A DNA stretch of 64,000 nt, from assembly GCA_902499925.1 (NCBI GenBank), contig GCA_902499925.1_4130.1. One strand, written 5' to 3'. Shown here piece by piece: positions 9,222 through 63,471 of this stretch. How positions within the stretch are numbered: position 1 is the stretch's first letter; the number at the start of each line of letters is the position of its first letter. This DNA comes from Escherichia coli. Lineage in GTDB: Bacteria; Pseudomonadota; Gammaproteobacteria; Enterobacterales; Enterobacteriaceae. A program made the position numbers and the translations under genes. Under the pieces are notes generated by a model. That model saw nothing but the letters and a program-made list of their open reading frames with translations. It did no database searches and was not told where the DNA came from.

Positions 9222-9223
9222 TG

Positions 9224-10133: not shown

Positions 10134-10181
10134 TCCATGTCAGTGTCGTAATGAAATTATATCACCGAATCAAGATATGTC

Positions 10182-11587: not shown

Positions 11588-11812
11588 TACAATAATCCTC
11601 TCACATAAAACATTGATGAAAATAGATAATCTTCAGTACTAGAATTTAGTAGTTTATCAAAACTATAATTTTTATGCTTATTTTCATACAAAGACATTCT
11701 GTAGTATCTTTCTATATTTTCTAAGTAGTCTTTTCGTAATAACATCTGTGTTGTTACATTCACTATAATGTACCTTAAAAGAAAAAGGGACCAATATATG
11801 ATCCCTTTTGTA

Positions 11813-12745: not shown

Positions 12746-12748
12746 ACT

Positions 12749-13078
12749 TTAATCCTCTAAAAATTTAACATGCTCTATATTATGATAGGTGAGCCATTCC
12801 TGTGGCGTTCCCTTGCGTATTAAAACACCAATATACGCAATACCATTAATTAGACCATTACTATCAGTATTCACATCAACTTTCACAATCTCAGAATCAT
12901 ACCAGTGTTTGAATGTGTAATCCCAACATCTGACTTTCTTTCCAATAAGATTGTTCTTGTATTTGTCAATCATTTCATCAACGATTGTTTGTACTGAATT
13001 TTTAATTTCAGCTTCTACTGACTTTATATACAGTAAATTACTTTGTGCATTGTTTATCATTGTATTTCCCAATCCCAA
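12749..13078 (-). CDS. small hypothetical protein (loose family D)
   Basis: 109 aa; KNNLIGKKVRCWDY segment. Confidence 0.45.
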   Translation of the reverse strand: MGLGNTMINNAQSNLLYIKSVEAEIKNSVQTIVDEMIDKYKNNLIGKKVRCWDYTFKHWYDSEIVKVDVNTDSNGLINGIAYIGVLIRKGTPQEWLTYHNIEHVKFLED

Positions 13079-13274
13079 ATCGCTTGGAGATTTTCACAAG
13101 TACAGATTCATCACAACGAATACTAGCAGTATCATTGGATGAACTGTACTTTAATGGGGTCCACTGTAATTGAGATTCTTCTAGGAACTTGATACATCTG
13201 AAATAATCTTTCAAGGAAAGAAATTTAACTACTGACATATCCTGAACAATACTATGCTGAACTTCAACTTTCAT
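13038..13274 (-). CDS. hypothetical protein
   Basis: 78-aa ORF overlapping neighbour 3' end; weakly supported. Confidence 0.3.
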   Translation of the reverse strand: MKVEVQHSIVQDMSVVKFLSLKDYFRCIKFLEESQLQWTPLKYSSSNDTASIRCDESVLVKISKRFGIGKYNDKQCTK

Positions 13275-13283
13275 ATGAACTCC

Positions 13284-13541
13284 TTATAGTGGGTCGAATT
13301 TATTTTCACGTTTCGATGTATAGCGAGTTACATCATGTATTCTCGGCTTAACACCTTTTGGTTTCCTTTTCTTCTTGTATTCAGTACTACTACACCCGAA
13401 AGTATTCTCGATTCGTTTCTTACTAATCTTCACACCTTTCTTAGAGCGTTTGTGCTGTAATTCATCGATTTCTTCTTGTATTTTCCTGAATTCTGTCGGA
13501 GAAAGGGAACCGTCATTTTTATACTTAGGTTTAGCCATCAC
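13284..13541 (-). CDS. small basic protein
   Basis: 85 aa, Lys/Arg-rich. Confidence 0.4.
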   Translation of the reverse strand: MMAKPKYKNDGSLSPTEFRKIQEEIDELQHKRSKKGVKISKKRIENTFGCSSTEYKKKRKPKGVKPRIHDVTRYTSKRENKFDPL

Positions 13542-13567
13542 TTCTCCTTGTGCTAGGCTAGATAGTA

Positions 13568-14710
13568 CTAAAAATCCTTTAGTACAATTTTCATGTACTT
13601 AATAAGAGTCTCTTTGTAATCGACTTTCTTATTGTTGTACATTGCAAAGGCCAAGCCCTGACGATTCAGTTCATTAGTTAAACACTCCTGAACCTTCTTA
13701 GCGAATTCCTTTCGCTCCAAGTGCTTGTGTTCCTTGACGAAGCTTTCAACTTCATCTTGTAAAGCATTATAGCACGAAAAGACTAGTTGTTCCATTCTTA
13801 ATATCTTTTGAGTAGCATATTCGTCAGTACTGAACAACTGTTTTAAATCATCACTCGAACCATTTAATACAGCTTCATATAAATGGGAATCGATTATAAT
13901 ACTGTCTTTCGTTAAATGCAAAGAACAATACCAGTCGGTTTTGATTTTGCACATTGTACCATTATTTAGGATGCACACAAAACCTTCAATGTCAAGCATT
14001 TTCTTAACTTCTTCAACACTTTCTTTGAATGTAGCACGAACAGGGAAAGTGTAATGAATATCTTTACCTGTCATATTAGTACTGTACTGTGCAAGGCATG
14101 GAAACTTATTACGTAATGCAGAACCACATAATAGTTCACCACTCTTGCGATGGCGAACGTTTAGTACAAATAATTGTTCAACCTGGTATGGTAATACAAT
14201 ACGGTACTCTGGACTTGTATACTCCAGATTAACAGTATAGCCCAAACGGTCTGCTTCGTCAATGTATTGATACAAATTTTGGTTCTCATTGAGAAGACGA
14301 GTACTGTTAATCGCATGGTCTGAATACAATGCAGTATGTGATTTACAACGAATTACACCATCATTATCACGGTAAGTACTGATTACTGAACCATCCAACT
14401 TAGGCATCACTACTGCAATGTCATCGAATGTGGTATCAGCAGGGAACATTGTAGCAGGATTTTCATAAGCATTGAAGAACTTTTTCATAGTACGAGCAGC
14501 ACAACGAATCATATCACCGTCTTCATCAATTTCCCACATAGAACCACGGGTTTCTAATGCATTGGGTTGCATGAAATCGGTATATGATGCTAGACGATAA
14601 CTGAATACACGATATGTTCCACCAGCAGGACTTTTATGATCCACATAAAAGAAAGCCTCACGGGTATTACATAAGTGCATTAAATCTTCATATATTTGTA
14701 AAAGGGTCAT
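13568..14710 (-). CDS. rnlA: RNA ligase 1 (T4 Rnl1/gp63-like)
   Basis: Colinear with T4 Rnl1: TYRVFSY, RGSMWE, adenylation motif KLDGSVISTY, later blocks EGFV and KIKTDWY. Confidence 0.9.
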   Translation of the reverse strand: MTLLQIYEDLMHLCNTREAFFYVDHKSPAGGTYRVFSYRLASYTDFMQPNALETRGSMWEIDEDGDMIRCAARTMKKFFNAYENPATMFPADTTFDDIAVVMPKLDGSVISTYRDNDGVIRCKSHTALYSDHAINSTRLLNENQNLYQYIDEADRLGYTVNLEYTSPEYRIVLPYQVEQLFVLNVRHRKSGELLCGSALRNKFPCLAQYSTNMTGKDIHYTFPVRATFKESVEEVKKMLDIEGFVCILNNGTMCKIKTDWYCSLHLTKDSIIIDSHLYEAVLNGSSDDLKQLFSTDEYATQKILRMEQLVFSCYNALQDEVESFVKEHKHLERKEFAKKVQECLTNELNRQGLAFAMYNNKKVDYKETLIKYMKIVLKDF

Positions 14711-14970
14711 TTTATTACCTCTATATCTACATCTGTGCCATAGTAGGAAACGTAACCATTATCTGAATTACATTGAATTGATAACTCTGATTCATAGTAT
14801 GTTACTTTGAACACTGTTAGAACTTTTTCATCAATTTTTCCCGTTAAATAATCCATTTCACGAACACGAACTTTGGTTCCTTTTGGGAGTTCTTGTGCAA
14901 TTTTATTAACAAGTTCAAAAGCAGCTTCTTCAAGTGTGTGCAACAATTGCAATCTATCTTGGATATTCAT
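14707..14970 (-). CDS. small hypothetical protein (loose family D)
   Basis: Track ORF 14707..15015 trimmed to internal Met (MNIQDR); PKGTKVRVREMD segment. Confidence 0.4.
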   Translation of the reverse strand: MNIQDRLQLLHTLEEAAFELVNKIAQELPKGTKVRVREMDYLTGKIDEKVLTVFKVTYYESELSIQCNSDNGYVSYYGTDVDIEVIK

Positions 14971-14971
14971 A

Positions 14972-15661
14972 TTATTTCCACCAAGTTGTATCACGACCAC
15001 CAGACAAAGATTCATTGTACTGATGTCTGAAATTAGTATTTGGATTATTTGTCATTGTACTAATAAAATCAAATTTAACATTCTCTTGAATGTAATTAAT
15101 AACATTATCTTTAAATTTAATAGTACTGAAGTCTAAATCTAAATGTTCATACAATACAGGATGACAAAACTCATGTGTACGCAATGATGGCATGGTATCC
15201 TTAATGTATTGCACAGTGTTAATCATTGCATTGTACTCAGGCATAGCACGCATCATCATTAGCTGAAAGTGTTCTTCCTCTGACATTGACTCATCCAAAT
15301 CAATAACTACTTCATCATTTTTAGAGTCATATACTTTAATGGAACTCTTTGTTGGATCAAGCATAGCCCACTCTGGATACAGGCATGTTTTCCAAAAAGG
15401 ATTATTGCACTGAAACATACTAATGAGATTTTGATTTTTATCAAAAATAGCAAATCCAAGATCCGAACTTGGCTGTACTTCACATACACAAATATCATAA
15501 GGGGAGTCTTCAGTACTGAATGAACCAACTACATTTGATATATGTGAATATGGAGTTTCTCTTGATTTTAATTCAAAGGCTCTCTCCATACGATTAACCT
15601 GTGGTTGTAATGTAATTACACCCCTCAGTACATATAAAATTCTATCTAAATCTTTAATCAA
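14972..15661 (-). CDS. hypothetical protein
   Basis: 229-aa ORF. Confidence 0.5.
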   Translation of the reverse strand: MIKDLDRILYVLRGVITLQPQVNRMERAFELKSRETPYSHISNVVGSFSTEDSPYDICVCEVQPSSDLGFAIFDKNQNLISMFQCNNPFWKTCLYPEWAMLDPTKSSIKVYDSKNDEVVIDLDESMSEEEHFQLMMMRAMPEYNAMINTVQYIKDTMPSLRTHEFCHPVLYEHLDLDFSTIKFKDNVINYIQENVKFDFISTMTNNPNTNFRHQYNESLSGGRDTTWWK

Positions 15662-16236
15662 AATTCTATCCTCGTATCGGTTAATTTCGTTCCGTCCATG
15701 TACTTAACAGTTATTTCAATGCGACGATCAGTACTCAATTTTTGAAGATCATTGTAGTACAATTTAAATTCTTCAAAGAACTCAAGTGGGGGAATATCGT
15801 ATAAAGTACCAATCTGGAAGTGCTCAGGTAATCCAAATTCCAATATATCAATCTTAGGCATAAGTCCATCTGCTGCTGCACCTTCTGGAGTACTGCTGTC
15901 TGCTATATAAAACATAGAATTACCATGACGCTGGATAACGAATATGCAATCATCTTCACTTACATAAATCATATTTCCAAGGTATGGATCGTTATCACAC
16001 AAATTATCATGGACGAGTTGTTGAACTTGAAGTAAATCTTTTATAATTCCCTGACCACTATCGTCAACTAGAATATGTAAACCAGAACAATCTTTGCTCA
16101 ACCAGCGGTATCTTGCATCACATCCTGATTCCATAAATGGATATTTTGAAAAATCCATATCAGTACCATTATAAAACCAATCGTACCACTCATTACGCAT
16201 AGTAATCAGCTTAGTACATAATTCTAATACATTCAT
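15658..16236 (-). CDS. hypothetical protein
   Basis: 192-aa ORF, 4-nt overlap with downstream gene. Confidence 0.5.
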   Translation of the reverse strand: MNVLELCTKLITMRNEWYDWFYNGTDMDFSKYPFMESGCDARYRWLSKDCSGLHILVDDSGQGIIKDLLQVQQLVHDNLCDNDPYLGNMIYVSEDDCIFVIQRHGNSMFYIADSSTPEGAAADGLMPKIDILEFGLPEHFQIGTLYDIPPLEFFEEFKLYYNDLQKLSTDRRIEITVKYMDGTKLTDTRIEF

Positions 16237-40293: not shown

Positions 40294-40880
40294 AGTAGAT
40301 CCTTATACATTGCATGTATTCTTACAATGTCTCTGTAATAACTCATATCTTCACGATTATCATTAAAAACAGTAACACTGAATACAGCAGTACTAATTGA
40401 ACTATCAACAATGTACTCTTTTAATTTATTATAAAGATATATGCACTTAGTAGATGTATCATCCCACATAAGACTATTTTGAAAGATGTTTTCTTCTGTG
40501 TTAGGATATAAGTACTGATCAATCTTGTACCCCAATGAACTATCACAGTTTTTATATACAGAAATAGATGGGACATTCATATTGCACATAATACTAATAA
40601 CATTATCATTGTATGTAGAAATTAAACTGGTACTGGATGCTACACTTTCATCATAATTCAGTACTGAAATTCTTGCATTATCTGTGCAGTACAGATGTTT
40701 CATTCCACCTCTCATAGCCATAGTAAGAAATTTATCAGTGAACCATATTCCTTTTGTTTTCAGTATAGTTTCATGCATAAGATAAGTTTCAATGAAGATT
40801 TTTACACGCTCAAATGCCAAGTCAAGTTCATTGTACATAACGGATATCCTTCTGTAAAGAATCAATATATTCTTTAACAA
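40284..40880 (-). CDS. paralog family A member
   Basis: EENIFQNSLMW. Confidence 0.55.
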   Translation of the reverse strand: MLKNILILYRRISVMYNELDLAFERVKIFIETYLMHETILKTKGIWFTDKFLTMAMRGGMKHLYCTDNARISVLNYDESVASSTSLISTYNDNVISIMCNMNVPSISVYKNCDSSLGYKIDQYLYPNTEENIFQNSLMWDDTSTKCIYLYNKLKEYIVDSSISTAVFSVTVFNDNREDMSYYRDIVRIHAMYKDLLCY

Positions 40881-41019
40881 CTTGTTCCTGATACTGTGTA
40901 CCCAAATACATCAGTACTTTTAATTCTTTGAATTCAGTACCATATGAGTCGATTTGCATCATTCTTTTAGAGTATATACCGAATAGTTTATCAATATCAT
41001 CTTGGTTTATTATTTTCAT
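40828..41019 (-). CDS. paralog family B member (dispersed copy)
   Basis: LGTQYQEQVVKEYIDSL. Confidence 0.5.
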   Translation of the reverse strand: MKIINQDDIDKLFGIYSKRMMQIDSYGTEFKELKVLMYLGTQYQEQVVKEYIDSLQKDIRYVQ

Positions 41020-41224
41020 AAACCCTCTTCTGGATTAGTTCCTGTAAGTGCTGAATATAACCCTTCATTGCAACATCCTGTTTGTTAGAGCCAACGAAGA
41101 ACAATAGCTTAAAGTCATGGTAATCCATTTTTGGTTTAGTAGTGAACCATATGTCCCACACTGCACTCACAGTTCTCATGTATTCAATTCGATTAAATGT
41201 TTTTGAATACTTCATCGAAATCAA
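40997..41224 (-). CDS. paralog family B-like (dispersed copy)
   Basis: VGSNKQDVAMKGYIQHL. Confidence 0.45.
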   Translation of the reverse strand: MISMKYSKTFNRIEYMRTVSAVWDIWFTTKPKMDYHDFKLLFFVGSNKQDVAMKGYIQHLQELIQKRVYENNKPR

Positions 41225-53396: not shown

Positions 53397-53786
53397 CTAA
53401 TCGTGCCATTTAATAGGATACTCCGTTCCATTTATTGTATAAGATATAATCCATCCGTAATGAATAGGACTATTCTTTTCTCCTTTAGGAATAAAATATA
53501 AAGATGTACTAGGATTATAACTGAATAAATCTTTATTGTCAAATGTAAAATGAGATAACGTTATCTTCCTTGAACTTGGACTAATAACATTCTTAACACC
53601 AAACACGGTATCTTGATATTTCTCTGAAAATTCAAACAATGCATCTGTAATTAAATCATTGAATTCTATACATAATGGTTTAAAAGAACCATCATTATCT
53701 TTGAATTCCTTATATAAAGAGCTTCTTGTATTCAAAAGAAATATTACTTTTTTAAGATCCTGAACTATTTCTGGATTCATATTCAT
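53397..53786 (-). CDS. hypothetical protein
   Basis: 129-aa ORF. Confidence 0.45.
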   Translation of the reverse strand: MNMNPEIVQDLKKVIFLLNTRSSLYKEFKDNDGSFKPLCIEFNDLITDALFEFSEKYQDTVFGVKNVISPSSRKITLSHFTFDNKDLFSYNPSTSLYFIPKGEKNSPIHYGWIISYTINGTEYPIKWHD

Positions 53787-54003
53787 TTATCTCATCCTGT
53801 AACTTAAGCATCAAAATTTGCATATTAATTTTTTGTACAAGGTGATTGAGAAATTTCTGTACTGTATCTTCTTGTTCTTTTGACCCAAGATAAAATAACA
53901 TATTAAATTCCGATAACCTCAGAGCAAAATCGTCATCTCCCCCTTGTAAACAAAAATCCCTGTACTTTGATGCATACAAATAACGGTTTATTTTTTTGTA
54001 CAT
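53752..54003 (-). CDS. paralog family B-like (dispersed copy)
   Basis: LGSKEQEDTVQKFLNHL. Confidence 0.45.
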   Translation of the reverse strand: MYKKINRYLYASKYRDFCLQGGDDDFALRLSEFNMLFYLGSKEQEDTVQKFLNHLVQKINMQILMLKLQDEINEYESRNSSGS

Positions 54004-54031: not shown

Positions 54032-54343
54032 TTATATGTCAATTTCAATGATCCTCCCTGACATACCTTGTATTAGCTTATCATACATATCGAGCATCAC
54101 TTTTTGAATACTAATTAATACTGGCATCGTGCAAATATCAATGTCGTATATTAAGCTGTACTGGAATAATTCCTCTTCCTGCATTTGTACTAAATTAGGT
54201 AAAAGATAATTGTCTGCCTCTTCATCCTGGTACTTGAAATGCATAACGCCATCCTTTTTGTACAAAAGAATGTCAATATCACCTAACTCTTCTGCATAAC
54301 CAAAAATACATATACTCGATGTTTTTGCTATATTAAATTTCAT
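54032..54343 (-). CDS. paralog family A member
   Basis: EEELFQYSLIY. Confidence 0.55.
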   Translation of the reverse strand: MKFNIAKTSSICIFGYAEELGDIDILLYKKDGVMHFKYQDEEADNYLLPNLVQMQEEELFQYSLIYDIDICTMPVLISIQKVMLDMYDKLIQGMSGRIIEIDI

Positions 54344-54352
54344 ATTCTTCTC

Positions 54353-54703
54353 TTATATGTGGAATTCACATACGTGTTGAACAAAATTCTTTGGAAGATG
54401 ACAATGTGTAATCATCTGCTTTTGTACTTCCTTCATATCTTCGAATGTAAATCCTAAAGAATCATCATGTACTAACAAGTACTGAAACTCTTCTTCTTCA
54501 GAGATAGAACATAAATTCGGTACTGAAATTGTTTTTGTTTTTCTTGCACCTAATTTCCAATGAAAAGAATTATTGCATTTTCTGTACTCAAATATCTTCA
54601 ACCCAGAACCTGTATTAAAATCAGCTACTACAATGTAACATGAATTCTTACGTACAATACAATTGAACTTACGCATTATCTCCACCTCTCTCCGTCTGTA
54701 CAA
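54353..54703 (-). CDS. paralog family A member
   Basis: SISEEEEFQYLLV. Confidence 0.55.
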   Translation of the reverse strand: MYRRREVEIMRKFNCIVRKNSCYIVVADFNTGSGLKIFEYRKCNNSFHWKLGARKTKTISVPNLCSISEEEEFQYLLVHDDSLGFTFEDMKEVQKQMITHCHLPKNFVQHVCEFHI

Positions 54704-54921
54704 GAGTACTGGTACGTTGTCGTTAGGGTAGGAACCATGTTTGTAATGGGCATATTGTTAACAATAACCGTAACAGGCATAAGAATCGTCTCTTCTCTAC
54801 TCTGTCCTGTCCTTGTGCAATTCATCTTCTGCATTTCATCTGAATCCATGAAATACAATACAAATGGTGCAATCCCAAGAACAATACACAAGACGATAAG
54901 GAAATTTAAAAAATTTAACAT
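54676..54921 (-). CDS. small membrane protein
   Basis: 81 aa, hydrophobic N-terminal helix MLNFLNFLIVLCIVLGIAPFVLYF. Confidence 0.4.
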   Translation of the reverse strand: MLNFLNFLIVLCIVLGIAPFVLYFMDSDEMQKMNCTRTGQSREETILMPVTVIVNNMPITNMVPTLTTTYQYSCTDGERWR

Positions 54922-54990
54922 AATTTTTACCCTCTATTTGAACGCTCAAAAAGTACAGGTACTATAGCACTAAAGAAAAGTACTGTCAAG

Positions 54991-55356
54991 CTAGTATTGC
55001 ACTGTTCTAATGAAAGTACCTGAACTCATGGATTTAAGCTTATGAACCTCTTCCTGTATACCCTTGAGCAACTCTAAAGGCATTGGTACATCATGTACTA
55101 AGCTGTACTGAAAGTATTCTTCTTCAGATAAAGTACTAACATCTGGGACGCCAATTTTAGTTAGATAATCTTGATGTGTTGACCAATAAATTATATCTTC
55201 AGTACAATTGTACTCCCCATATACTGAACAATATTGATGAATATCTTTCCTGTACCCTTGAGCAATAAAGAACTTATCTACGGCATTAATAGAACTCACT
55301 TCGATTGTTACAGTACTTGAGCTTGTTTTTCCTTTATTATGCATATTAATCCCCAA
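54991..55356 (-). CDS. paralog family A member
   Basis: STLSEEEYFQYSLV. Confidence 0.55.
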   Translation of the reverse strand: MGINMHNKGKTSSSTVTIEVSSINAVDKFFIAQGYRKDIHQYCSVYGEYNCTEDIIYWSTHQDYLTKIGVPDVSTLSEEEYFQYSLVHDVPMPLELLKGIQEEVHKLKSMSSGTFIRTVQY

Positions 55357-55532
55357 ATTAGATATCGAACACTATCAGCTTGATAGTTAGTTCCTACTGT
55401 GTGTTTTAATATTAACTCATCTTTCAGTACTGAACATTCTGCATTAGATATAGGAAGTGAATTAATTCTTTGAATTTCTGGTCGCAACATACCGCGAATC
55501 TTGCGATAATCTTCGTATGATAATCTTTTCAT
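55308..55532 (-). CDS. paralog family B member (dispersed copy)
   Basis: VGTNYQADSVRYLIWGL. Confidence 0.5.
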   Translation of the reverse strand: MKRLSYEDYRKIRGMLRPEIQRINSLPISNAECSVLKDELILKHTVGTNYQADSVRYLIWGLICIIKEKQAQVL

Positions 55533-55535
55533 GGT

Positions 55536-55880
55536 TTAATACTCAATAATGTGTTCTTCATAATCACCATTAGGCTCCTGTTTAGCTTCTTTCATTAGTA
55601 CTATCATCTTATGTACTAATGGCATAGGAAACTCTAAATCCCATACTAATGATTCCTGAAAGTATTCCTCTGGTGATAAAGTACTTAAATCTTTAATATC
55701 AACGTGCTTGTATATTTTATTTTCGTAATTAACAAATGATATATATAAATCATTAATATAAGAATCATACGTAATTGTGAATGGCTTACCCTTGTAGTCC
55801 ATTACATCTCTACATAGACTACTTTTGATATATATATGTTCATAGGATTTATATACCTTGAGTTGTATATTAGTTTTCAT
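55536..55880 (-). CDS. paralog family A member
   Basis: STLSPEEYFQESLVW. Confidence 0.55.
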   Translation of the reverse strand: MKTNIQLKVYKSYEHIYIKSSLCRDVMDYKGKPFTITYDSYINDLYISFVNYENKIYKHVDIKDLSTLSPEEYFQESLVWDLEFPMPLVHKMIVLMKEAKQEPNGDYEEHIIEY

Positions 55881-56121
55881 ATTTCTCTTTATTAGCTTGT
55901 TTGGTTTTATAGTGAATTAAATCTATTAATGTAATCAAGTACAACTTCAAAAAGTACTCTTGATGGTTCGTACCTAATGATACAAAGAACTTATGCTCAT
56001 AAATCAAAACCTGTTTCACTTCAAAGGGACACTTAATCCTCTGTATAGGTTTAAGTAAATGATAGTACTTATTAAATCTATGATACATTTCTAGTTCTGT
56101 CAGTACTTTCATATTAAACAA
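55870..56121 (-). CDS. paralog family B member
   Basis: LGTNHQEYFLKLYL. Confidence 0.55.
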   Translation of the reverse strand: MFNMKVLTELEMYHRFNKYYHLLKPIQRIKCPFEVKQVLIYEHKFFVSLGTNHQEYFLKLYLITLIDLIHYKTKQANKEKYEN

Positions 56122-56335
56122 TCACTCCATTAGCTGTAGCATCACGTAAAGCTCTCAAATACTTCTGTACTGCTTGCTCTTGCTTATTTGTACCTAAAAG
56201 TATATACATCCATAATTCACTGTAATGTACATCTTGTGTATAAGGGTTGTTGTAACTTTTTGATAATATAGCATCAAATTCAGATGCATGAACCCTTGTG
56301 AACTTAAGAATATCTTGTTGTGTTATGATTCTCAT
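56114..56335 (-). CDS. paralog family B member
   Basis: LGTNKQEQAVQKYL. Confidence 0.55.
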   Translation of the reverse strand: MRIITQQDILKFTRVHASEFDAILSKSYNNPYTQDVHYSELWMYILLGTNKQEQAVQKYLRALRDATANGVIV

Positions 56336-56547
56336 ATCTTTTCCTGTACTATCTGTATAAGAATCCCTATGTGTGAATTAACAGTTCTCTCTTGATGCTG
56401 TGTTCCTAAGAGTGTCAGTACTATCATCTCTGAACGCAAAAGATTTTTCTGAAGTTCACTTATATCAGTCCTCATATCAAGATTCAGAAATTCTTGACTA
56501 TTTTTTCTGAATAGTGCCAAGTACTCTTGATTTGATATTTCCTTCAT
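56332..56547 (-). CDS. paralog family B member
   Basis: LGTQHQERTVNSHI. Confidence 0.55.
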   Translation of the reverse strand: MKEISNQEYLALFRKNSQEFLNLDMRTDISELQKNLLRSEMIVLTLLGTQHQERTVNSHIGILIQIVQEKI

Positions 56548-56774
56548 AGTTTATCCCTGATGCCATTTAAAAGTGCTCTAATATGCTCCTGTACGAATTT
56601 GTACTGACTGTCTGTTCCTAGAGTGAGTAGCAATCTTAAATCTGAACTTTTGATGTGATATTCTAAATCATTATTTGATTCTTGCATCAGTTTCTTAAAG
56701 GATGAGAAGTTTGCAGCCATTAGTTCAATGTATTCTGCTGTTCCTAGTGGTTTGTGTATTGGCTGTTTGTGCAT
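56544..56774 (-). CDS. paralog family B member
   Basis: LGTDSQYKFVQEHI. Confidence 0.55.
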   Translation of the reverse strand: MHKQPIHKPLGTAEYIELMAANFSSFKKLMQESNNDLEYHIKSSDLRLLLTLGTDSQYKFVQEHIRALLNGIRDKL

Positions 56775-56986
56775 TTTAATTTTATTACCCTTTTGAGTGT
56801 ATTAATGTAATTATACACATTGGCTTCTTGATAGTTAGTTCCCAGTGTAGCTTGAACATAGATTTCATTTAACTTAATAATTTTATCAGTATCTGGTAGT
56901 TTTGATGTGTTAATGGCAAATAACTTCAAAAACAGTCCATTTAAGATTGTTAGGTATTCTTCGTCGGTAATGATTCGCATTTGCAT
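56744..56986 (-). CDS. paralog family B member
   Basis: LGTNYQEANVYNYI. Confidence 0.6.
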   Translation of the reverse strand: MQMRIITDEEYLTILNGLFLKLFAINTSKLPDTDKIIKLNEIYVQATLGTNYQEANVYNYINTLKRVIKLKCTNSQYTNH

Positions 56987-57192
56987 TGGATAAACCTTTT
57001 TAGTTCTTTGATGTAATCATTAATATTGCATTCTTGATAGTTAGTCCCTAGGGTAGCTTGAACATAGATTTCACTCATTAGAATATTTTTTTCTTCATCA
57101 GGTAAATCTGTGGTCTTTGCTATATACAATTTTAGAATTAAACTACTTAATAGTTCGTGGTATTCACTTGGTGAAAGGATTTTCATTTGCAT
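56950..57192 (-). CDS. paralog family B member
   Basis: LGTNYQECNINDYI; near-duplicate of 56744..56986 at DNA level. Confidence 0.6.
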   Translation of the reverse strand: MQMKILSPSEYHELLSSLILKLYIAKTTDLPDEEKNILMSEIYVQATLGTNYQECNINDYIKELKRFIQCKCESLPTKNT

Positions 57193-57398
57193 GTTCTCAG
57201 TACAGATTCTTTAAGTTCATCGATGTAGTCCTCAACGAATTGCTCTTGGAAGTTAGTTCCAATATATAAAAGAACTCTTAAATCTGCTCTAAGTAACTCT
57301 TTTTCATCATCATCTATATCAGACAATGTTATGTTTAAGAATTTACTTGTATTAAAGATTAACAATTCTGTTTGTTCACTGTGGCTTAAAATTTTCAT
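57183..57398 (-). CDS. paralog family B member
   Basis: IGTNFQEQFVEDYI. Confidence 0.55.
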   Translation of the reverse strand: MKILSHSEQTELLIFNTSKFLNITLSDIDDDEKELLRADLRVLLYIGTNFQEQFVEDYIDELKESVLRTCK

Positions 57399-57606
57399 AA
57401 TCTCTTTTTGCTTTCCTCGACAGTAGGTACAAATACGATTCTTCGTATTGTGCTTGGAAGTTTGTGTTTAAGAGTCGAAACAACTTCTGTTCTTCTAGAA
57501 CGAGTTGCTTATCTTCATAACAACGGTAGCGTATCAACTTTTTGTATTCGATGTTGATTACATCCATTACTATAAGCCCATGTTCATCATCTGTCAAGTG
57601 CTTCAT
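57376..57606 (-). CDS. paralog family B member
   Basis: LNTNFQAQYEESYL. Confidence 0.5.
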   Translation of the reverse strand: MKHLTDDEHGLIVMDVINIEYKKLIRYRCYEDKQLVLEEQKLFRLLNTNFQAQYEESYLYLLSRKAKRDYENFKPQ

Positions 57607-57845
57607 GCTTTTTTTCTTTTCCTGATGTGTTTAGTTAAAAGGTATATTAGTTTTCTGATGTATTCTTCCTGATAGTTTGTTCCTAATAGTGCAAGAAGTT
57701 TTGCTTCAACTAAAGCTAATTGACGTTCTTCAAATGTGTGTTCCAGTATGTACTTTGGGTTTGATTTTTTAGAAATTGCACTATTAGTTTTCATTACAAT
57801 CTTATGATATTCATTAACTGTTAGGATTTTTAAATTCTTGAGCAT
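57603..57845 (-). CDS. paralog family B member
   Basis: LGTNYQEEYIRKLI. Confidence 0.55.
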   Translation of the reverse strand: MLKNLKILTVNEYHKIVMKTNSAISKKSNPKYILEHTFEERQLALVEAKLLALLGTNYQEEYIRKLIYLLTKHIRKRKKA

Positions 57846-58071
57846 GTACCTTTTCCTTTATAGAGAATTTAAGATATCGAAGCATACTTTCAATGTAATA
57901 CTCTTGTCTGTCAGTTCCAAGAAAGTACAGGAGTTGAATGTATAAAACTTCTGCACTCCTTTCGGCATGTGACTTGTTTGTGTCGTTTGGAAGTTGATTT
58001 GTAAGTTTTCTGGATTTAATTAATCGTTCTTTTAACTCATCGTCTGTTAAGTATTTCATTTGCATTTGCAT
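57814..58071 (-). CDS. paralog family B member
   Basis: LGTDRQEYYIESML. Confidence 0.55.
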   Translation of the reverse strand: MQMQMKYLTDDELKERLIKSRKLTNQLPNDTNKSHAERSAEVLYIQLLYFLGTDRQEYYIESMLRYLKFSIKEKVHAQEFKNPNS

Positions 58072-58297
58072 TTACTTTTTCCTTAATAGTGATTTTAAGA
58101 TATCTAATCATACGTGCAACATATTCCTCTTGTCTATCAGTTCCCAGAAGATATGGTAGTGATTGGAATAATACTTCTGCACTCCTTTCTGCTGGGGTTT
58201 GGTTTAGGTCAATTGGACGTTTATTGGTATATCTCTTGGCACGAACTAATCTCTCGACGTATTCATTATAGGTTAAGTATATCATTTCATTTTGCAT
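58037..58297 (-). CDS. paralog family B member
   Basis: LGTDRQEEYVARMI; twin of 57814..58071. Confidence 0.55.
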   Translation of the reverse strand: MQNEMIYLTYNEYVERLVRAKRYTNKRPIDLNQTPAERSAEVLFQSLPYLLGTDRQEEYVARMIRYLKITIKEKVNANANEILNRR

Positions 58298-58533
58298 TTA
58301 ATGTTTCTTACGTAAATTGTCTGGATTAAACAATCAATCCAAGTTTGAATATATTGGTTTTGATACTGTGTGCCTAAGAGACTCTGCATTTTAAACTCTG
58401 CTTCAAGTTCATATCTCTTTTCTATAGAAAAGCTCAAATGACCATATTCTTTATCGTATCTTCTCAGTGCTTCCCCAATTCTATCAAATCTTTCTGCTAA
58501 TCTGATGTTATTCACAATATTCATCGCATTCAT
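58282..58533 (-). CDS. paralog family B member
   Basis: LGTQYQNQYIQTWI. Confidence 0.55.
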   Translation of the reverse strand: MNAMNIVNNIRLAERFDRIGEALRRYDKEYGHLSFSIEKRYELEAEFKMQSLLGTQYQNQYIQTWIDCLIQTIYVRNIKCKMK

Positions 58534-58808
58534 CGATCAGTACACCTCAGTGGTTGGGTCATTTGATGAAAGTACAGCTTACCTCTGATTTCCAGTAGTA
58601 ACTCCGCGATTAAGCGATTTACTTCTGTATCTTGATAGTTTGTTCCTAAGAATACACCCATCTTTAACTCACGCATCATAATCATTTTCTTACTGTGTTG
58701 AATTTCTGGGTTGTGATAGATTGTATTACGTTTGTGCGTAATTTTTGTCATACGCTCGGTATATTCATCTTTACTTAAATTAATCATTTTTATTCTCCAA
58801 AGCATCAC
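58530..58808 (-). CDS. paralog family B member
   Basis: LGTNYQDTEVNRLI. Confidence 0.55.
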   Translation of the reverse strand: MMLWRIKMINLSKDEYTERMTKITHKRNTIYHNPEIQHSKKMIMMRELKMGVFLGTNYQDTEVNRLIAELLLEIRGKLYFHQMTQPLRCTDR

Positions 58809-59019
58809 ATTTATTTTCGATACAAATCATTAGTTCTCTAAGATAGTTTTTTATCTTACCTTCCTGATGGTTCGTCCCCAGGAAGTTGCATAACTCTGCT
58901 TCTATTATTTTGATTCTTCTGGTGTCAGGTTTCAATTTTTTGTTATTGAAGATTTGAATCCTTATATCCCTTGATGCATTTAAACGTTTTTGATATTCAT
59001 GGAAAGATAAATTAATCAT
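58780..59019 (-). CDS. paralog family B member
   Basis: LGTNHQEGKIKNYL. Confidence 0.55.
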   Translation of the reverse strand: MINLSFHEYQKRLNASRDIRIQIFNNKKLKPDTRRIKIIEAELCNFLGTNHQEGKIKNYLRELMICIENKCDALENKND

Positions 59020-59234
59020 TTACTTTGTATCTCTCTCTTGAGGGCATCAATTAACAACAGTACAGCATTCTCTTGATAGTTTGTTCCTAAGACTGAAAGC
59101 ATCTTAATCTCATTTACTACAATCAACTTCTTTGAGCGTTCAATAATGTTACTATTATAAACGGCGTTACGTGCTGGATAAGTTTTTGCAAGACGAACAT
59201 AATATTCATCTTTACTTAAATTAATCATTTGCAT
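59016..59234 (-). CDS. paralog family B member
   Basis: LGTNYQENAVLLLI. Confidence 0.55.
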   Translation of the reverse strand: MQMINLSKDEYYVRLAKTYPARNAVYNSNIIERSKKLIVVNEIKMLSVLGTNYQENAVLLLIDALKREIQSK

Positions 59235-59443
59235 TTACTTTGGATCTCCTTGACTAATGCATCAACCCACATGTCTATATACATTTGTTGATAGTTTGTC
59301 CCTATGAGTGCCCCTGCATAGAGTTCAGCTACCATTGCATGTTTTAGGTTGGCAGGGATGCTCTTATCAGATTGAATCTTTACTCTTCTGTTGGCACATG
59401 TTTTCAGAAGCTTAACATATTCGTAACCTATTAATTTTCTCAT
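59225..59443 (-). CDS. paralog family B member
   Basis: IGTNYQQMYIDMWV. Confidence 0.55.
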   Translation of the reverse strand: MRKLIGYEYVKLLKTCANRRVKIQSDKSIPANLKHAMVAELYAGALIGTNYQQMYIDMWVDALVKEIQSKCK

Positions 59444-59655
59444 TCTTTTGATATCACCTTGTTACGTAAGGCACTTAACAATACGTCAGTGTAGATGTTT
59501 TGATAGTTTGTTCCTACGAATACACCCAACTTCATTTCAGCTATTATAACACATTTGTCCTCTTGTGCAATAGACTTGTCTAAAGAAATACTAACAACTT
59601 TCCTTCTTATAGCTTGTAACCTCCAATGATACTGATACTCATTTAGGGTTATCAT
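59440..59655 (-). CDS. paralog family B member
   Basis: VGTNYQNIYTDVLL. Confidence 0.55.
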   Translation of the reverse strand: MITLNEYQYHWRLQAIRRKVVSISLDKSIAQEDKCVIIAEMKLGVFVGTNYQNIYTDVLLSALRNKVISKE

Positions 59656-59890
59656 TCTCTCGCCTCCATTTCTCGGTTCTAATGTGTTGACATTGTGCTT
59701 CGATGAACATATCTATTGATTTGGCAATTGCTTTTTTATCTGTGCCTGTCATCAGTACAAGCATCTCGGCCTCACAGTGAAGTAAACGCATGATATCATA
59801 GGGTAATATTCCAGATACCGTGTCATAGTGTTTCTGTGCCAGTGTCTGTAATAGTTTACAATACATTTTGTGATTTAGTCTGTGTCGCAT
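59639..59890 (-). CDS. paralog family B-like (divergent)
   Basis: TGTDKKAIAKSIDMFI. Confidence 0.45.
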   Translation of the reverse strand: MRHRLNHKMYCKLLQTLAQKHYDTVSGILPYDIMRLLHCEAEMLVLMTGTDKKAIAKSIDMFIEAQCQHIRTEKWRRENDNPK

Positions 59891-60147
59891 TGTTTATTCC
59901 ATTCTTTTTTGGCCTTGATGGTTTTATATTGGATTTGGTTTCTTAATGCTGATAAGTATCGTTGAATGAACAGATCTTGATAGTTTGTTCCAATGAATTT
60001 CATCAGATAAAGTTCACCGTTGATAACATCCACTTCAGGTGCACCATATAAGGCATTGTTTTTTCTAAGGGTATGGATTAAAGAGAATAGGGCAGTTTGA
60101 TACTCAACTCCTGATAAAGTCTTCATGTTTTGTGAGCCAATAATCAT
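59875..60147 (-). CDS. paralog family B member
   Basis: IGTNYQDLFIQRYL. Confidence 0.55.
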   Translation of the reverse strand: MIIGSQNMKTLSGVEYQTALFSLIHTLRKNNALYGAPEVDVINGELYLMKFIGTNYQDLFIQRYLSALRNQIQYKTIKAKKEWNKQCDTD

Positions 60148-60361
60148 CTAGTTTATCCTGTATAACATTCATTAATTGTTCGACATATTCTGTGCAAAAC
60201 TTATCTTGATATTGAGTCCCCATAAAGTACAACAACCATAGCTCATTAACTTTAGCTCGCATTTGGTTCCATGTAAGGCTGGGGTCATCGTAGACTATCC
60301 TTGCTATAGGGGTTAGTTTACGGACTATAGTTTCATATTCATCTAGTGTTAAGTGTTTCAT
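60104..60361 (-). CDS. paralog family B member
   Basis: MGTQYQDKFCTEYV. Confidence 0.55.
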   Translation of the reverse strand: MKHLTLDEYETIVRKLTPIARIVYDDPSLTWNQMRAKVNELWLLYFMGTQYQDKFCTEYVEQLMNVIQDKLDDYWLTKHEDFIRS

Positions 60362-60576
60362 TTACATTTGTCCCTTATTAGATCAGTGAGGGCAACTATG
60401 TGTGCAACAACATACTCTTCCTGAAAGTTCGTCCCCAGTACAGCCATCATGCGTATATCGGTGGTGTTTATCCTGTGTTCCCTTACACATAAACCTTCTG
60501 TGTGAGGAAGTGTAAAATATTTGTTTATTGCAGCAACGATAATTTTATTCTTCTCGGAGTTACTTAAATGTTTCAT
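60358..60576 (-). CDS. paralog family B member
   Basis: LGTNFQEEYVVAHI. Confidence 0.55.
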   Translation of the reverse strand: MKHLSNSEKNKIIVAAINKYFTLPHTEGLCVREHRINTTDIRMMAVLGTNFQEEYVVAHIVALTDLIRDKCK

Positions 60577-60785
60577 AGTTTGCTCTTAATGTATTTCTGG
60601 AGTGCAATTATATACTCATTCAAGAAATGCTCCTGATAGTCTGTGCCGAGGAATGCACCCAATAGTATATCATTTTCCAATACTAATGCTAAGTTTAAAT
60701 CATCAGTCTCTTCATATACTATGAGAATTTCAAGTTGTCTGGCAGCGACGCGTTCGGTATATAGATTTGAGTTAATGCTATTCAT
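60573..60785 (-). CDS. paralog family B member
   Basis: LGTDYQEHFLNEYIIALQKYIKSKL. Confidence 0.55.
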   Translation of the reverse strand: MNSINSNLYTERVAARQLEILIVYEETDDLNLALVLENDILLGAFLGTDYQEHFLNEYIIALQKYIKSKL

Positions 60786-60994
60786 AGTTTACTCTTAATG
60801 TAATTCTGGAGTGCAATTAAGTATTCCCCTACATAATACACCTGAAAGTCTGTATCCAAAAATGCACCCATAAGTAAATCTTTTTCTAATACCCTTGATA
60901 AGTTAAGGTCTGCATTTGAAAGGTATATAAGTAAGATTTCACCCTGTGCGGAATTGAAACGTTTCTTATATTCTTCTGGTGTTAAAAAAATCAT
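60782..60994 (-). CDS. paralog family B member
   Basis: LDTDFQVYYVGEYLIALQNYIKSKL; twin of 60573..60785. Confidence 0.55.
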   Translation of the reverse strand: MIFLTPEEYKKRFNSAQGEILLIYLSNADLNLSRVLEKDLLMGAFLDTDFQVYYVGEYLIALQNYIKSKL

Positions 60995-61200
60995 AGTTTC
61001 CTCTTAATATCTTCTATTAAAAATCGAATCCAATCGTCAACATACTCTTCCTGATGGTTTGTGTTCAGTACAGCCAACATGCGGATCTCTGCTCTTGCAA
61101 CTTCAATTGCAGTTTTAGGAAGGTCTTTTCTGATATCCAACATTAAGTCCATGTATCTCAAGATAAGACCGTATGATTGGGTTCGTGTTATAGTTTTCAT
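60991..61200 (-). CDS. paralog family B member
   Basis: LNTNHQEEYVDDWI. Confidence 0.5.
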   Translation of the reverse strand: MKTITRTQSYGLILRYMDLMLDIRKDLPKTAIEVARAEIRMLAVLNTNHQEEYVDDWIRFLIEDIKRKL

Positions 61201-61397
61201 TGTTTCCTCGTGGATAATATTTCATTTTTCAATGCATCCATATATTGAATCACCCATCTTCCCTGATAGCTTGTTCCCAATGTAATCAAAAGGTATAACT
61301 CAATTCGTTCTAAGTTTGTGTCTGTGTTATAAATCTTTACCATGTTTTTACGTAACAGTTCTTGATAATCTTCTTTATTTAAAATACGCATTTTCAT
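61197..61397 (-). CDS. paralog family B member
   Basis: LGTSYQGRWVIQYM. Confidence 0.5.
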   Translation of the reverse strand: MKMRILNKEDYQELLRKNMVKIYNTDTNLERIELYLLITLGTSYQGRWVIQYMDALKNEILSTRKQ

Positions 61398-61591
61398 AGT
61401 CTACCTTTTATGTCCCTTCGTAATTCTTGTAAGTATAGTTCGATATACTTTTCTTGATAGTTAGTTCCTATGAAAAGTTTCATAACCAATTCACGCTTAT
61501 ATGCAATACCACGGATATGTGACATATGTAGGATATATGCCATGTTGGATATGAGTGTGTGGTTGTGCTCTTCTTGAGTTAAAATACGCAT
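61394..61591 (-). CDS. paralog family B member (first gene of the tandem array in transcription order)
   Basis: IGTNYQEKYIELYL; track ORF 61394..61621 trimmed to internal Met (MRILTQ) preceded by GGAG. Confidence 0.55.
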   Translation of the reverse strand: MRILTQEEHNHTLISNMAYILHMSHIRGIAYKRELVMKLFIGTNYQEKYIELYLQELRRDIKGRL

Positions 61592-61619
61592 AGGGACTCC
61601 ATTAAAAATAATATCAATC

Positions 61620-61650
61620 ATATAATATACAATTCATATAAAAAGTCAAT
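61620..61650 (-). promoter_or_regulatory. sigma70-like promoter candidate upstream of family B array
   Basis: Minus-sense TTGACT-~16nt-TATTAT/ATATTA with TG upstream; approximate. Confidence 0.4.
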
Positions 61651-62942: not shown

Positions 62943-62996
62943 TTTGAATCTCCTAACTTTGTGGGCCGTCGCACCGTTGCCGCCCTACGAGATACA

Positions 62997-63025
62997 TTAT
63001 CGCAGTACTGATATACTTTGTCAAT
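62997..63025 (-). promoter_or_regulatory. sigma70-like promoter candidate
   Basis: Minus-sense TTGACA-17nt-GATAAT upstream of 62610..62942. Confidence 0.5.
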
Positions 63026-63410: not shown

Positions 63411-63471
63411 GCGGGAGAACTATTCCCCCGCTCTATGTAAAACATTATACATTACTGGTTAGTACTGTCAA
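63411..63471 (-). promoter_or_regulatory. sigma70-like promoter plus conserved leader hairpin (copy 2)
   Basis: Minus-sense TTGACA-16nt-TGTATAAT (perfect consensus) then leader GCGGGGGA-auagu-UCUCCCGC hairpin. Confidence 0.65.

Follow-up and report, generated by a model that had tools for sequence, protein, structure and literature searches.

A recurring DNA word in a tandem gene array of an Asteriusvirus-type jumbo phage is probably a by-product of a conserved protein motif

The early and pre-early blocks with which phages T4 and T5 take over their hosts lie at the end of the genome that is first to enter the cell and are built of short overlapping open reading frames (ORFs) downstream of host-type promoters, and they consist mostly of unrelated genes, most of them without detectable homologues. 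Tandem arrays of a different kind are the gene accordions of the poxvirus type, which arise by recent tandem amplification through unequal crossing-over and contain near-identical copies. Among giant phages, lineage-specific expansions of small proteins have been described for Bacillus phage G with around 35 copies of a zinc ribbon (PMC7824862) and for the Rak2-like phage CBB with 22 paralogous ORFs (PMC5259590). Here, we analyzed a tandem array of small paralogous genes, called family B, in which a short DNA word recurs; to judge from the searchable literature, the organization of this array and the G-T-x-x-Q hinge of its proteins are first described here.

The analyzed stretch of DNA (64,000 nucleotides from Escherichia coli assembly GCA_902499925.1; "the window") belongs to an E. 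coli jumbo phage of the Asteriusvirus type (121Q/PBECO4-like). At 84-97% identity, it matches 36 phage records, all of them from Asteriusvirus jumbo phages of E. coli or Salmonella, and the array genes are annotated as hypothetical in every matching record. Array members are packed head to tail (Table 1), with 4-nt ATGA overlaps at 12 of the 25 junctions and overlaps of 8-44 nt at the remaining ones, and the family HMM matches all of them (E = 1e-16 to 1e-27). Because their dN/dS relative to orthologues is 0.32-0.40, we regard these ORFs as real coding genes. The window contains at least 4 further family B members outside the array.

Table 1. Positions of the family B genes, their core motifs, and the putative promoter in the window
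Feature	Position	Strand	Core	Core position	Remarks
Sigma-70-like promoter (putative)	61622-61649	-			TTGACT-16 nt-TATTAT, directly upstream of first array gene; consensus scan, 10/12
Tandem array	55870-61621	-			26 family B genes; ORF list; 66-92 aa as longest ORFs
Member 1	61394-61621	-	IGTNYQE	61451-61471	promoter-proximal
Member 2	61197-61397	-	LGTSYQG	61260-61280	
Member 3	60991-61200	-	LNTNHQE	61048-61068	
Member 4	60782-60994	-	LDTDFQV	60839-60859	
Member 5	60573-60785	-	LGTDYQE	60630-60650	
Member 6	60358-60576	-	LGTNFQE	60418-60438	
Member 7	60104-60361	-	MGTQYQD	60203-60223	
Member 8	59875-60147	-	IGTNYQD	59974-59994	
Member 9	59639-59890	-	TGTDKKA	59729-59749	array's most divergent
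Member 10	59440-59655	-	VGTNYQN	59497-59517	
Member 11	59225-59443	-	IGTNYQQ	59285-59305	
Member 12	59016-59234	-	LGTNYQE	59070-59090	structure-predicted protein
Member 13	58780-59019	-	LGTNHQE	58861-58881	
Member 14	58530-58808	-	LGTNYQD	58629-58649	
Member 15	58282-58533	-	LGTQYQN	58357-58377	
Member 16	58037-58297	-	LGTDRQE	58127-58147	
Member 17	57814-58071	-	LGTDRQE	57901-57921	
Member 18	57603-57845	-	LGTNYQE	57666-57686	
Member 19	57376-57606	-	LNTNFQA	57451-57471	
Member 20	57183-57398	-	IGTNFQE	57243-57263	
Member 21	56950-57192	-	LGTNYQE	57031-57051	missing in SP27, G17, 121Q
Member 22	56744-56986	-	LGTNYQE	56825-56845	
Member 23	56544-56774	-	LGTDSQY	56601-56621	
Member 24	56332-56547	-	LGTQHQE	56389-56409	
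Member 25	56114-56335	-	LGTNKQE	56177-56197	window's only member with core Asn = AAT
Member 26	55870-56121	-	LGTNHQE	55957-55977	end of contiguous array
Family B, amid family A genes	55308-55532	-	VGTNYQA	55377-55397	exact 18-mer
Family B, divergent	53752-54003	-	LGSKEQE	53869-53889	HMM E = 3e-7
Family B, ~15 kb away	40828-41019	-	LGTQYQE	40885-40905	
Family B, ~15 kb away	40997-41224	-	VGSNKQD	about 41075-41095	

All 6 array members that were searched match phrog_4148 over their full length (E = 1e-9 to 1e-22), an entry without function, motif description or structure in PHROG, and sequence searches of Pfam, NCBIfam and the PDB gave no match for the family. Among 1.84 billion proteins, the family accounts for just 96 clusters at 50% identity. 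It is confined to phages of the Rak2-like group, namely Asteriusvirus, Alcyoneusvirus RaK2 and one metagenomic lineage. Its proteins of about 65-90 residues share the motif (L/I/V)-G-T-N-Y-Q-(E/D), and in the family alignment Thr, Gln and one Leu are conserved at 90% or more while the mean column identity is 29%. An AlphaFold model of member 12 (pLDDT 97.3, pTM 0.83) predicts with confidence that family B proteins fold as a four-helix bundle (residues 8-17, 19-26, 33-47 and 54-71, with bridge residues 4 and 51) in which the motif would form the connection from helix 3 to helix 4. In this model, helix 3 is followed by Leu-Gly, Thr pairs with residue 4 in the N-terminal segment through a beta-bridge, and the chain then runs through Asn-Tyr into the last helix, whose first residue is Gln.

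At the DNA level, the window contains 5 exact copies of CTTGATAGTTWGTTCCYA (0 expected) and 16 matches with up to 3 mismatches (0.33 expected by chance), 15 of which are on the plus strand between 55379 and 61470. All copies of the word lie in frame within family B genes, on a single strand throughout, and a previous sequence-only reading was right to take the word for the complement of the LGTNYQ codons in a tandem gene family. The positions given in that reading (~56.83, ~57.05, ~58.63, ~59.08, ~59.51 and ~59.99 kb) also hold, either exactly or with 1-2 mismatches: The 20-mer cttgatagtttgttcctaag is exact at 58631 and 59072 and 2 bases off at each of 59499 and 59976, and cttgatagttagttccc is exact at 56827 with 1 mismatch at 57033. 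That the word occurs once per gene is true of the protein motif but not of the DNA, where it is found within 3 mismatches in 14 of the 26 array genes and in the neighboring member at 55308-55532; array genes beyond this limit carry motif variants such as GTDRQ, GTQHQ or NTNHQ. Successive cores are spaced by 219.8 nt on average (range 191-272). Adjacent genes had further been thought to share longer identical tracts, but the longest exact word common to any 2 members (29 nt) links the N-terminal ends of the non-adjacent genes 58530-58808 and 59016-59234, and the remaining ones are at most 22 nt long and located at the core. The closest adjacent pair (60573/60782) has 77% identity across 124 nt.

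The word recurs because Gly, Thr and Gln of the motif are nearly invariant, because Asn, Tyr and Glu are common, and because most of these are two-codon residues in an AT-rich genome. The sequence-only reading had instead considered conservation of the DNA beyond that of the protein, but comparing the arrays of 8 genomes showed that synonymous sites of the core are as variable among orthologues as those elsewhere. At columns with invariant amino acids, synonymous variation affects 40/171 in the core and 251/1417 elsewhere; 14% of 2-fold sites are variable in both, and 4-fold sites vary at 22/53 (42%) in the core compared with 45/195 (23%) elsewhere. Variability over all sites is 15.6% in the core and 17.7% in the flanks, and within clusters of at least 96% identity it is 2.4% and 2.2%, respectively. 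The core thus changes at the rate of its flanks, with free third positions changing faster, so that there is no DNA-level purifying selection on it and the word is not maintained by selection on DNA.

Between paralogues, 3 core codons are nevertheless more uniform than amino acid constraint and codon usage predict, and this part of the claimed DNA-level conservation stands. In the core, AAC encodes Asn in 17 of 18 members compared with a background of 26% (p = 2e-9), TAT encodes Tyr in 15 of 15 (p = 3e-4 vs background), and the Gly codons are rich in GGA (p = 2e-5 vs background). These are the only deviating codons among 42 conserved columns, and their bias is stable across all 8 genomes. For core Gly, Gln, Glu and Leu, codon matching between paralogues is at or below expectation. 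The 10 members of GTNYQ type have 64% of their core Gly/Thr/Gln codons in common (38-44% for other pairs) while being barely closer outside the core (24% vs 21% amino acid identity). Outside the core, paralogue pairs with the same amino acid agree in its codon at a frequency of 0.440 compared with 0.416 expected, and synonymous sites between paralogues are therefore saturated. The bias is specific to the lineage of this array and absent from 2 independent lineages of the family: A metagenomic jumbo phage contig with 17 members (core Asn AAT in 2/2, Gly GGT in 8/14) and Klebsiella phage RaK2 with 10 members (AAT in 3/4, GGT in 6/8) both follow their own background (Fisher p = 8e-4 for Asn and 2e-4 for Gly between the window array and these lineages).

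On the opposite strand, the word mirrors the (L/I/V)-G-T-N-Y-Q-(E/D) codons in PHROG 4148 paralogues of an Asteriusvirus-type phage. We consider it likely, with a probability of roughly 0.8, that it is a coding by-product whose residual codon uniformity would stem from founder codons and short-patch exchange. The sequence-only reading proposed that the repeats provide homology for unequal crossing-over, and the word might accordingly be a favored crossover point for unequal homologous recombination that would drive copy-number change and shuffling of N- and C-terminal halves and may be uniform for this reason. Copy-number variation among isolates, which that reading had suggested looking for, is present with 23-29 array genes in the 8 genomes; the longest exact words between diverged members are nearly all the core, its free sites turn over faster among orthologues, and the breakpoint interval of 2 of the 3 strongest paralogue chimeras lies inside or overlaps core columns 138-159. 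The last gene in SP27, ph0011, G17 and 121Q joins an N part from 61394 to a C part from 60991, and in the second chimera, the extra gene found in EC.P1, SP27 and G17, the N part resembles 58530 and the C part 60782. However, around 10 gene-sized indels in the array all have their edges ~0-40 nt from gene ends and none at the core, and the genes whose presence differs between genomes are old paralogues with ~30-55% identity to any neighbor rather than recent duplicates, with no paralogue pair exceeding about 57% amino acid identity. Across 16 gene groups, significant mosaic change-points are dispersed, with 2-3 of 16 near the core where ~4 would be expected. Efficient RecA-type exchange in E. 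coli is usually quoted to require a minimum of ~23-27 bp, and the exact identity of 17-22 nt between paralogues at the core is at or below this value. A role of the word as homology for unequal crossing-over is therefore weakly supported at best, and we view the favored crossover point as quite unlikely.

Site-specific selection on translation or mRNA, be it for accurate decoding of a critical Asn, a programmed pause at GGA as the rarer codon or escape from cleavage at an AU-rich AAU-UAU site, would fit a deviation that is confined to 3 central core codons and kept in all 8 genomes despite AAC-to-AAT changes in single orthologues. Neighbor context does not explain the bias since AAC-TAT is the rarest Asn-Tyr dicodon elsewhere (6/50), and AAC makes up 38% of Asn codons in family B genes but 26% in other genes. 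Yet the equivalent position in the 2 other lineages, which have related hosts, is AAT in 5/6 and GGT in 14/22, and synonymous variability of core Asn (2/18) and Tyr (1/15) among orthologues equals that elsewhere (9/83 and 14/99). The codons preferred here for Tyr, Gly and Gln (TAT, GGA and CAA) are, moreover, not known as favored codons of highly expressed E. coli genes. We regard such selection as unlikely, and a founder state or short-patch exchange fits the bias better. Far less probable is a functional nucleic acid site (protein-binding site, sRNA target, antisense promoter or nuclease site) that lies within genes by accident. The word is strongly over-represented and strictly strand-specific, and its plus-strand TTGATA looks like a -35 hexamer, but it always occupies the same frame and the same codons of proteins that are homologous, both paralogues and orthologues vary freely at its third positions, and the Gln codon within TTGATA is CAG in 10 of 29 members. 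No complementary copy was found elsewhere in the window, Rfam gave no match, a consensus scan counted 58 promoter-like sites compared with 60 expected, and matches of the 17-mer in IMG/VR outside this phage group were chance singletons only. A non-coding repeat array (CRISPR-like or satellite) with spurious ORFs, as the regular ~220-nt intervals of the word might suggest, is refuted and has practically no probability left: Units are only ~40% identical in nucleotides outside the core, Tandem Repeats Finder reports no repeat of a period near 220, dN/dS shows the ORFs to be conserved, the family alignment yields a high-confidence fold prediction, and protein homologues exist in other phage genera.

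Overall, the word is thus an ordinary by-product of coding that leaves one small codon quirk. The uniformity of Asn AAC, Tyr TAT and Gly GGA would go back to the codons of a founder and have been preserved by occasional exchange of short patches between paralogues, with no function of the DNA word, and the family as a whole may have evolved by ancient duplication, whole-gene loss and patchy recombination, both from phage to phage and from paralogue to paralogue. The codon deviations and core-internal chimera junctions leave room for an effect at the level of DNA or RNA.

The element upstream of the array is a putative promoter by consensus match only, and its position would place the actual start of the first array gene at the ATG at 61591 (MRILTQEEH), which is preceded by GGAG. 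The annotations of EC.P1 and SP27 start the orthologous gene at the equivalent ATG, which gives 65 aa. In vB_Ec-M-J, the array starts just inside the annotated direct terminal repeat of 21,525 bp, and the operon would begin at a sigma-70-like promoter ~40-70 nt within the inner edge of a ~21-kb direct terminal repeat. Position, promoter consensus and analogy suggest that the array may be an early operon transcribed by host RNA polymerase, and its products might be small binding modules that have diversified to serve host takeover or counter-defense.

Compared with known systems, the array members share their size of ~70 aa and their phage origin with the phrog_4148 family. The expansions of phage G and CBB resemble the array in comprising dozens of small paralogues per giant genome in accessory or early regions, but the array copies form one uninterrupted head-to-tail operon beside a terminal repeat, and their predicted four-helix bundle has no zinc ligands, unlike the zinc ribbon of phage G. 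By analogy, the array would resemble the early blocks of T4 and T5 in its short overlapping ORFs behind a host-type promoter while consisting of 26 paralogues of one predicted fold. Poxvirus accordions likewise contain tandem gene copies whose number differs between isolates, whereas the closest paralogues of the array are 51-57% identical in protein sequence, with saturated synonymous sites and indels that represent old cassettes lost or gained. As in concerted evolution by gene conversion, for which the evidence at the core is statistical only, the short tract GGR ACW AAC TAT CAA is synonymously more uniform than the rest and paralogues are patchy mosaics, but the array genes are not homogenized as a whole: Orthologues are 80-100% identical in nucleotides and paralogues ~40%.

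The sequence-only reading had singled out a word of 18 to 20 nucleotides recurring on the + strand of the array of family B, a family of small proteins (PHROG 4148), and the positions that it quoted for this word proved right to within 0 to 2 mismatches. The sequence CTTGATAGTTWGTTCCYA is present in 5 exact copies against 0 expected, and in 15 + strand copies against 0.33 expected when up to 3 mismatches are allowed. Every copy, read as its complement, spells the codons of the motif (L/I/V)-G-T-N-Y-Q (the "core") at a constant frame and position in family B genes, with a mean core-to-core spacing of 219.8 nt (range 191-272); in about half of the members the core has diverged to versions such as GTDRQ, GTQHQ, or NTNHQ. 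The word is real but ordinary: it is the trace left in coding DNA by a structural hinge of tandem paralogues. Adjacent genes were also said to share longer identical tracts, but the longest exact word shared between any two genes measures 29 nt and lies in two non-adjacent ones, and all remaining shared exact words are at most 22 nt long and are the core itself. In IMG/VR, the word is otherwise found only as scattered singletons, except for 121Q and one family member of Klebsiella phage RaK2. As a DNA feature the word matters little, beyond illustrating that tandem paralogues with a conserved protein motif can mimic a repeat array.

The window has a G+C content of 33.6%, 148 of its 150 long ORFs lie on the - strand, and no tRNA was found in it. 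It is matched at 84-97% identity by 36 phage records, all from Asteriusvirus jumbo phages that infect E. coli or Salmonella (including 121Q, PBECO4, vB_Ec-M-J, and CMSTMSU), and the matching parts contain only genes annotated as hypothetical. ATGA overlaps are found at 12 of the 25 array junctions, and all window members of family B match an HMM built from the array. Seven of them match phrog_4148 (function unknown) with E values of 1.3e-9 to 1.2e-22 over profile positions ~1-72 of 74, and the alignments display both the length of ~65-90 aa and the conserved G-T-x-x-Q hinge of that family. Searches against Pfam, NCBIfam, and PDB sequences gave no match for family B, the literature search found no description of the family or its array, and nothing was found by IMG/VR scans with the queries P0172 and P0168 or by tblastn of P0172 against phage records. 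The dN/dS values of 0.32-0.40 for array genes indicate that the encoded proteins are functional but fast-evolving, and their predicted pI spans 4.4 to 10.0. Family B outnumbers every other paralogous family located at the early end of Asteriusvirus jumbo-phage genomes, and it is uncharacterised and moderately interesting. A second paralogous family of ~100-120 aa, family A (54032-55880, - strand), shares the motif S-(E/P)-E-E-x-F-Q-(Y/E)-S-L-(V/I)-(H/W)-D, its two tested members match phrog_13866 (unknown function), and one family B member (55308-55532) is set amid its genes. The tetranucleotide GTAC occurs 585 times in the window against ~195 expected from base composition.

Coordinates of family B, its relatives, and associated features (window positions unless another record is named)
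Feature	Location	Strand	Remarks
Family B array	55870-61621	-	26 small ORFs in a row, 66-92 aa, all one family
Further family B members	55308-55532, 53752-54003, 40828-41224		in-window total 30
Toggling core codons 4-5	e.g. 56183-56188 in 56114-56335		between invariant Thr and Gln; NK, NY, DH in the 56114 group
Co-changing Gly/Thr third sites	vB_Ec-M-J orthologue of 60104-60361; SP27 orthologue of 57603-57845
Blocks of low identity to vB_Ec-M-J	56155-56240, 60899-60967, 55472-55524
Sigma-70-like promoter TTGACT-16-TATTAT	61649-61622	-	consensus match; abuts first array gene
Sigma-70 consensus sites	63444-63471, 53514-53542, 62996-63024, 54961-54989, 57569-57597	-
Family A genes	54032-54343, 54353-54703, 54991-55356, 55536-55880	-
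Family B groups of RaK2	e.g. ORF399-401, ORF407-409
P0193	Escherichia phage EC.P1 338002-338808 (L003 1-246, cut)		also in phage UB

An AlphaFold model built from a 29-sequence alignment of the family is very confident (pLDDT 97.3, pTM 0.83) and predicts four helices at residues 8-17, 19-26, 33-47, and 54-71. Leu49-Gly50 are predicted to come after helix 3, Thr51 to pair through a beta-bridge with residue 4, in the N-terminal segment, and Asn52-Tyr53 to run into helix 4, which begins at Gln54. The family alignment has just three columns with at least 90% conservation, namely Thr, Gln, and a Leu further downstream, and distant relatives keep L-G-T-x-x-Q with two variable residues in the middle. 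These middle residues (Asn and Tyr) toggle even in closely related orthologues whose remaining sequence is 90-98% identical (NK/NY/DH, NH/DQ, NH/NY, and SY/NY), and they may form a specificity-determining surface beside the hinge. Helix-turn-helix DNA-binding proteins were considered for the L-G-T...Q turn, and no match in fold or sequence to a known HTH domain was found. Family B brings together a confidently predicted fold without known relative, fast evolution, variable membership, and two hypervariable residues beside an invariant hinge.

Conservation of the word at the DNA level, as the sequence-only reading had proposed, did not hold up when the window was compared with seven related arrays (vB_Ec-M-J, EC.P1, SP27, ph0011, G17, 121Q, and one Logan contig): the core is as variable as elsewhere, which is the very outcome named in that reading as speaking against it. 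At amino-acid-invariant columns, synonymous variation was seen at 40/171 in the core and 251/1417 elsewhere. Variable 2-fold sites make up 14% in both, and variable 4-fold sites amount to 22/53 in the core and 45/195 elsewhere (p = 0.009). Counting all sites, 15.6% of the 21-nt core and 17.7% of the 60-nt flanks are variable, and within clusters of at least 96% identity the values are 2.4% for the core and 2.2% elsewhere. The nucleotide word as such is not under purifying selection. At the core Gly and Thr third positions across all array members, the proportion of variable 4-fold sites is about double that found elsewhere in the same genes, and the two third sites sometimes change together in genes that are otherwise 95-99% identical.

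Several other explanations of the word as a DNA element were considered and rejected. A CRISPR-like or other dispersed non-coding array needs near-identical direct repeats of ~23-50 nt, unique spacers of ~25-75 nt, and non-coding units, whereas the repeat here is an imperfect 17-22 nt with only about half of the units within 3 mismatches of it, the spacing is 191-272 nt, and the units are ORFs conserved at the dN/dS values of 0.32-0.40. For a satellite, head-to-tail units should be at least ~70% alike, yet units are ~40% identical outside the core and TRF detected no tandem repeat with a period near 220 in the array. Readings as an antisense -35-like TTGATA, as an IHF-like site, or as hidden stop codons ("ambush") fail because the third positions of Gln, Thr, and Gly vary, so that none of them is kept across members in the codon table as inspected by eye. 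No complementary copy of the word that could belong to an sRNA partner was found elsewhere in the window, and Rfam gave no family match.

Relatives of family B also occur outside Asteriusvirus. A distant metagenomic lineage was found through contigs encoding family proteins and a 17-mer scan, and its jumbo-phage contig (ENA ERZ14189038 NODE_1, 101 kb, 34% G+C) carries 17 members at ~7460-16122, of which 12 form a single tandem run, with the motif LGTxxQ, variable middle residues, and a ParE-like gene ~4 kb upstream. RaK2 (genus Alcyoneusvirus, record 246634-271234) has ~10 members in small groups and no long array, and its ORF400 bears the exact 17-mer GGAACTAACTATCAAGA. P0193 is a fusion protein of 269 aa in which residues 1-63 form a family B domain; the other relatives of its C-terminal domain are only ~200-aa proteins of Klebsiella RaK2-like phages (40% identity), and neither part matched a known family.

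Among paralogues, codon statistics on HMM-aligned columns showed that synonymous sites are saturated, with a same-amino-acid codon identity outside the core of 0.440 against 0.416 expected from codon usage, and in paralogue pairs the core Gly, Gln, Glu, and Leu have codon identities at or below expectation. Three central core codons nevertheless stand out in a scan of 42 conserved columns: Asn is AAC in 17 of 18 cases (background 26%, p = 2e-9), Tyr is TAT in 15 of 15 (p = 3e-4), and Gly is GGA-rich and GGT-poor (p = 2e-5), a bias that is present in 8 of 8 genomes. It is absent from the metagenomic jumbo-phage contig (17 members; Asn AAT 2/2, Gly GGT 8/14) and from RaK2 (10 scattered members; Asn AAT 3/4, Gly GGT 6/8), two independent lineages that differ from the window array at Fisher p = 8e-4 for Asn and 2e-4 for Gly.

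This absence makes a decoding-accuracy rule tied to the fold unlikely, and translational accuracy at a critical Asn was rejected as a general rule with RaK2 and the metagenomic lineage using AAT at the same position. A neighbour-context bias for AAC-TAT was discarded as well: outside the family, this is the rarest Asn-Tyr dicodon (6/50), and TAT before C reaches just 71% and GGA before ACN 38%. Members of the GTNYQ type might also be a young clade, but outside the core they are just marginally closer to each other (24% vs 21% amino-acid identity). Concerted evolution by gene conversion would make paralogues within a genome more alike than expected, also at synonymous sites; whole genes do not show this, but the core Asn, Tyr, and Gly codons do, as do the Gly, Thr, and Gln codons among GTNYQ-type members, so that conversion may have acted on the core. 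We infer that short-patch exchange and a founder state may be the source of the codon uniformity: if array members exchange short core patches, they are not independent samples and the anomaly shrinks to a single founder state, and such exchange would also account for the faster turnover of polymorphic third positions. The array-specific fixation of AAC, TAT, and GGA offers a small, clean case for studying conversion versus selection in the synonymous uniformity of multigene families.

Taken as the longest ORF, the first array gene would start at 61621, directly after the -10 hexamer of the sigma-70-like promoter, but its true start is probably the ATG at 61591 because of its family-consensus N-terminus (MRILTQEEH) and GGAG. 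Several other members have likely downstream starts as well (e.g., MQM..., MQMQM..., or VMLWRIKM...). In vB_Ec-M-J, the array starts ~100 bp past the inner boundary of an annotated 21.5-kb direct terminal repeat, a position equivalent to ~61.69 kb in the window, and ~20-kb terminal repeats have been experimentally confirmed for a relative (PMC13070987). By consensus and position, the array has a putative sigma-70-type promoter at its head and would lie at the first-entering genome end, as expected of an early operon. From this position, the promoter consensus, and analogy, we infer that the array may be an early operon whose products are diversified small binding proteins that would serve host takeover or counter-defence. 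The sigma-70 consensus matches comprise two of 12/12 (TTGACA-16/17-TATAAT) and three of 11/12, one of the latter inside the array near the start of 57376-57606; the count of promoter-like sites in the window is not above shuffled expectation. Asteriusvirus jumbo phages are candidates for phage therapy, and should family B proteins act in host takeover or counter-defence, the array would provide ~26-30 natural variants ready to screen.

Copy number, which the sequence-only reading had suggested comparing, does differ among isolates: according to per-genome member lists for eight genomes, the contiguous array comprises 23-29 genes (23 in 121Q; 26 in the window, vB_Ec-M-J, SP27, and the Logan contig; 27 in ph0011; and 29 in EC.P1 and G17). 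The differing genes are old paralogues, ~30-55% identical to anything else, and the edges of ~10 gene-sized indels fall within ~0-40 nt of gene ends and not at the core. Mosaicism is patchy and common, with significant change-points scattered in 16 gene groups, of which 2-3 lie near the core against ~4 expected, i.e., without enrichment. Two of the three strongest paralogue chimeras join inside the core while the third does not, and the two core-joined ones are older. At 17-22 nt, the stretches of exact homology are of marginal length for RecA-type exchange. The variable copy number and two core-joined chimeras speak for the suggestion that the word provides homology for unequal crossing-over, and the indel edges and change-points speak against it. 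The core can serve as a joint and is not demonstrated as a hotspot; given the small array-specific codon uniformity and the two core-joined chimeras, exchange through the word may play a minor role. Relative to vB_Ec-M-J, the window has 50-90-nt blocks of <85% identity within an alignment that is otherwise ~96-100% identical, a pattern that indicates patchwise replacement within single genes.

A far-reaching extension, which we regard as improbable, is that the G-T-N-Y-Q word acts as a micro-homology "joint" through which members swap their C-terminal helix and the three helices that precede it, with short-patch conversion keeping the joint uniform; the phage would then hold a self-shuffling library of ~26 small early proteins sharing a fold not described before, each directed against a different host or defence target. 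Among known systems, the array resembles a gene accordion (recent tandem amplification) in that copy number differs among isolates. An accordion would, however, be expected to have near-identical neighbours and gain/loss junctions in the shared repeat, whereas the closest pairs here have 51-57% protein identity with saturated synonymous sites, and the junctions of gain and loss lie at gene ends instead.
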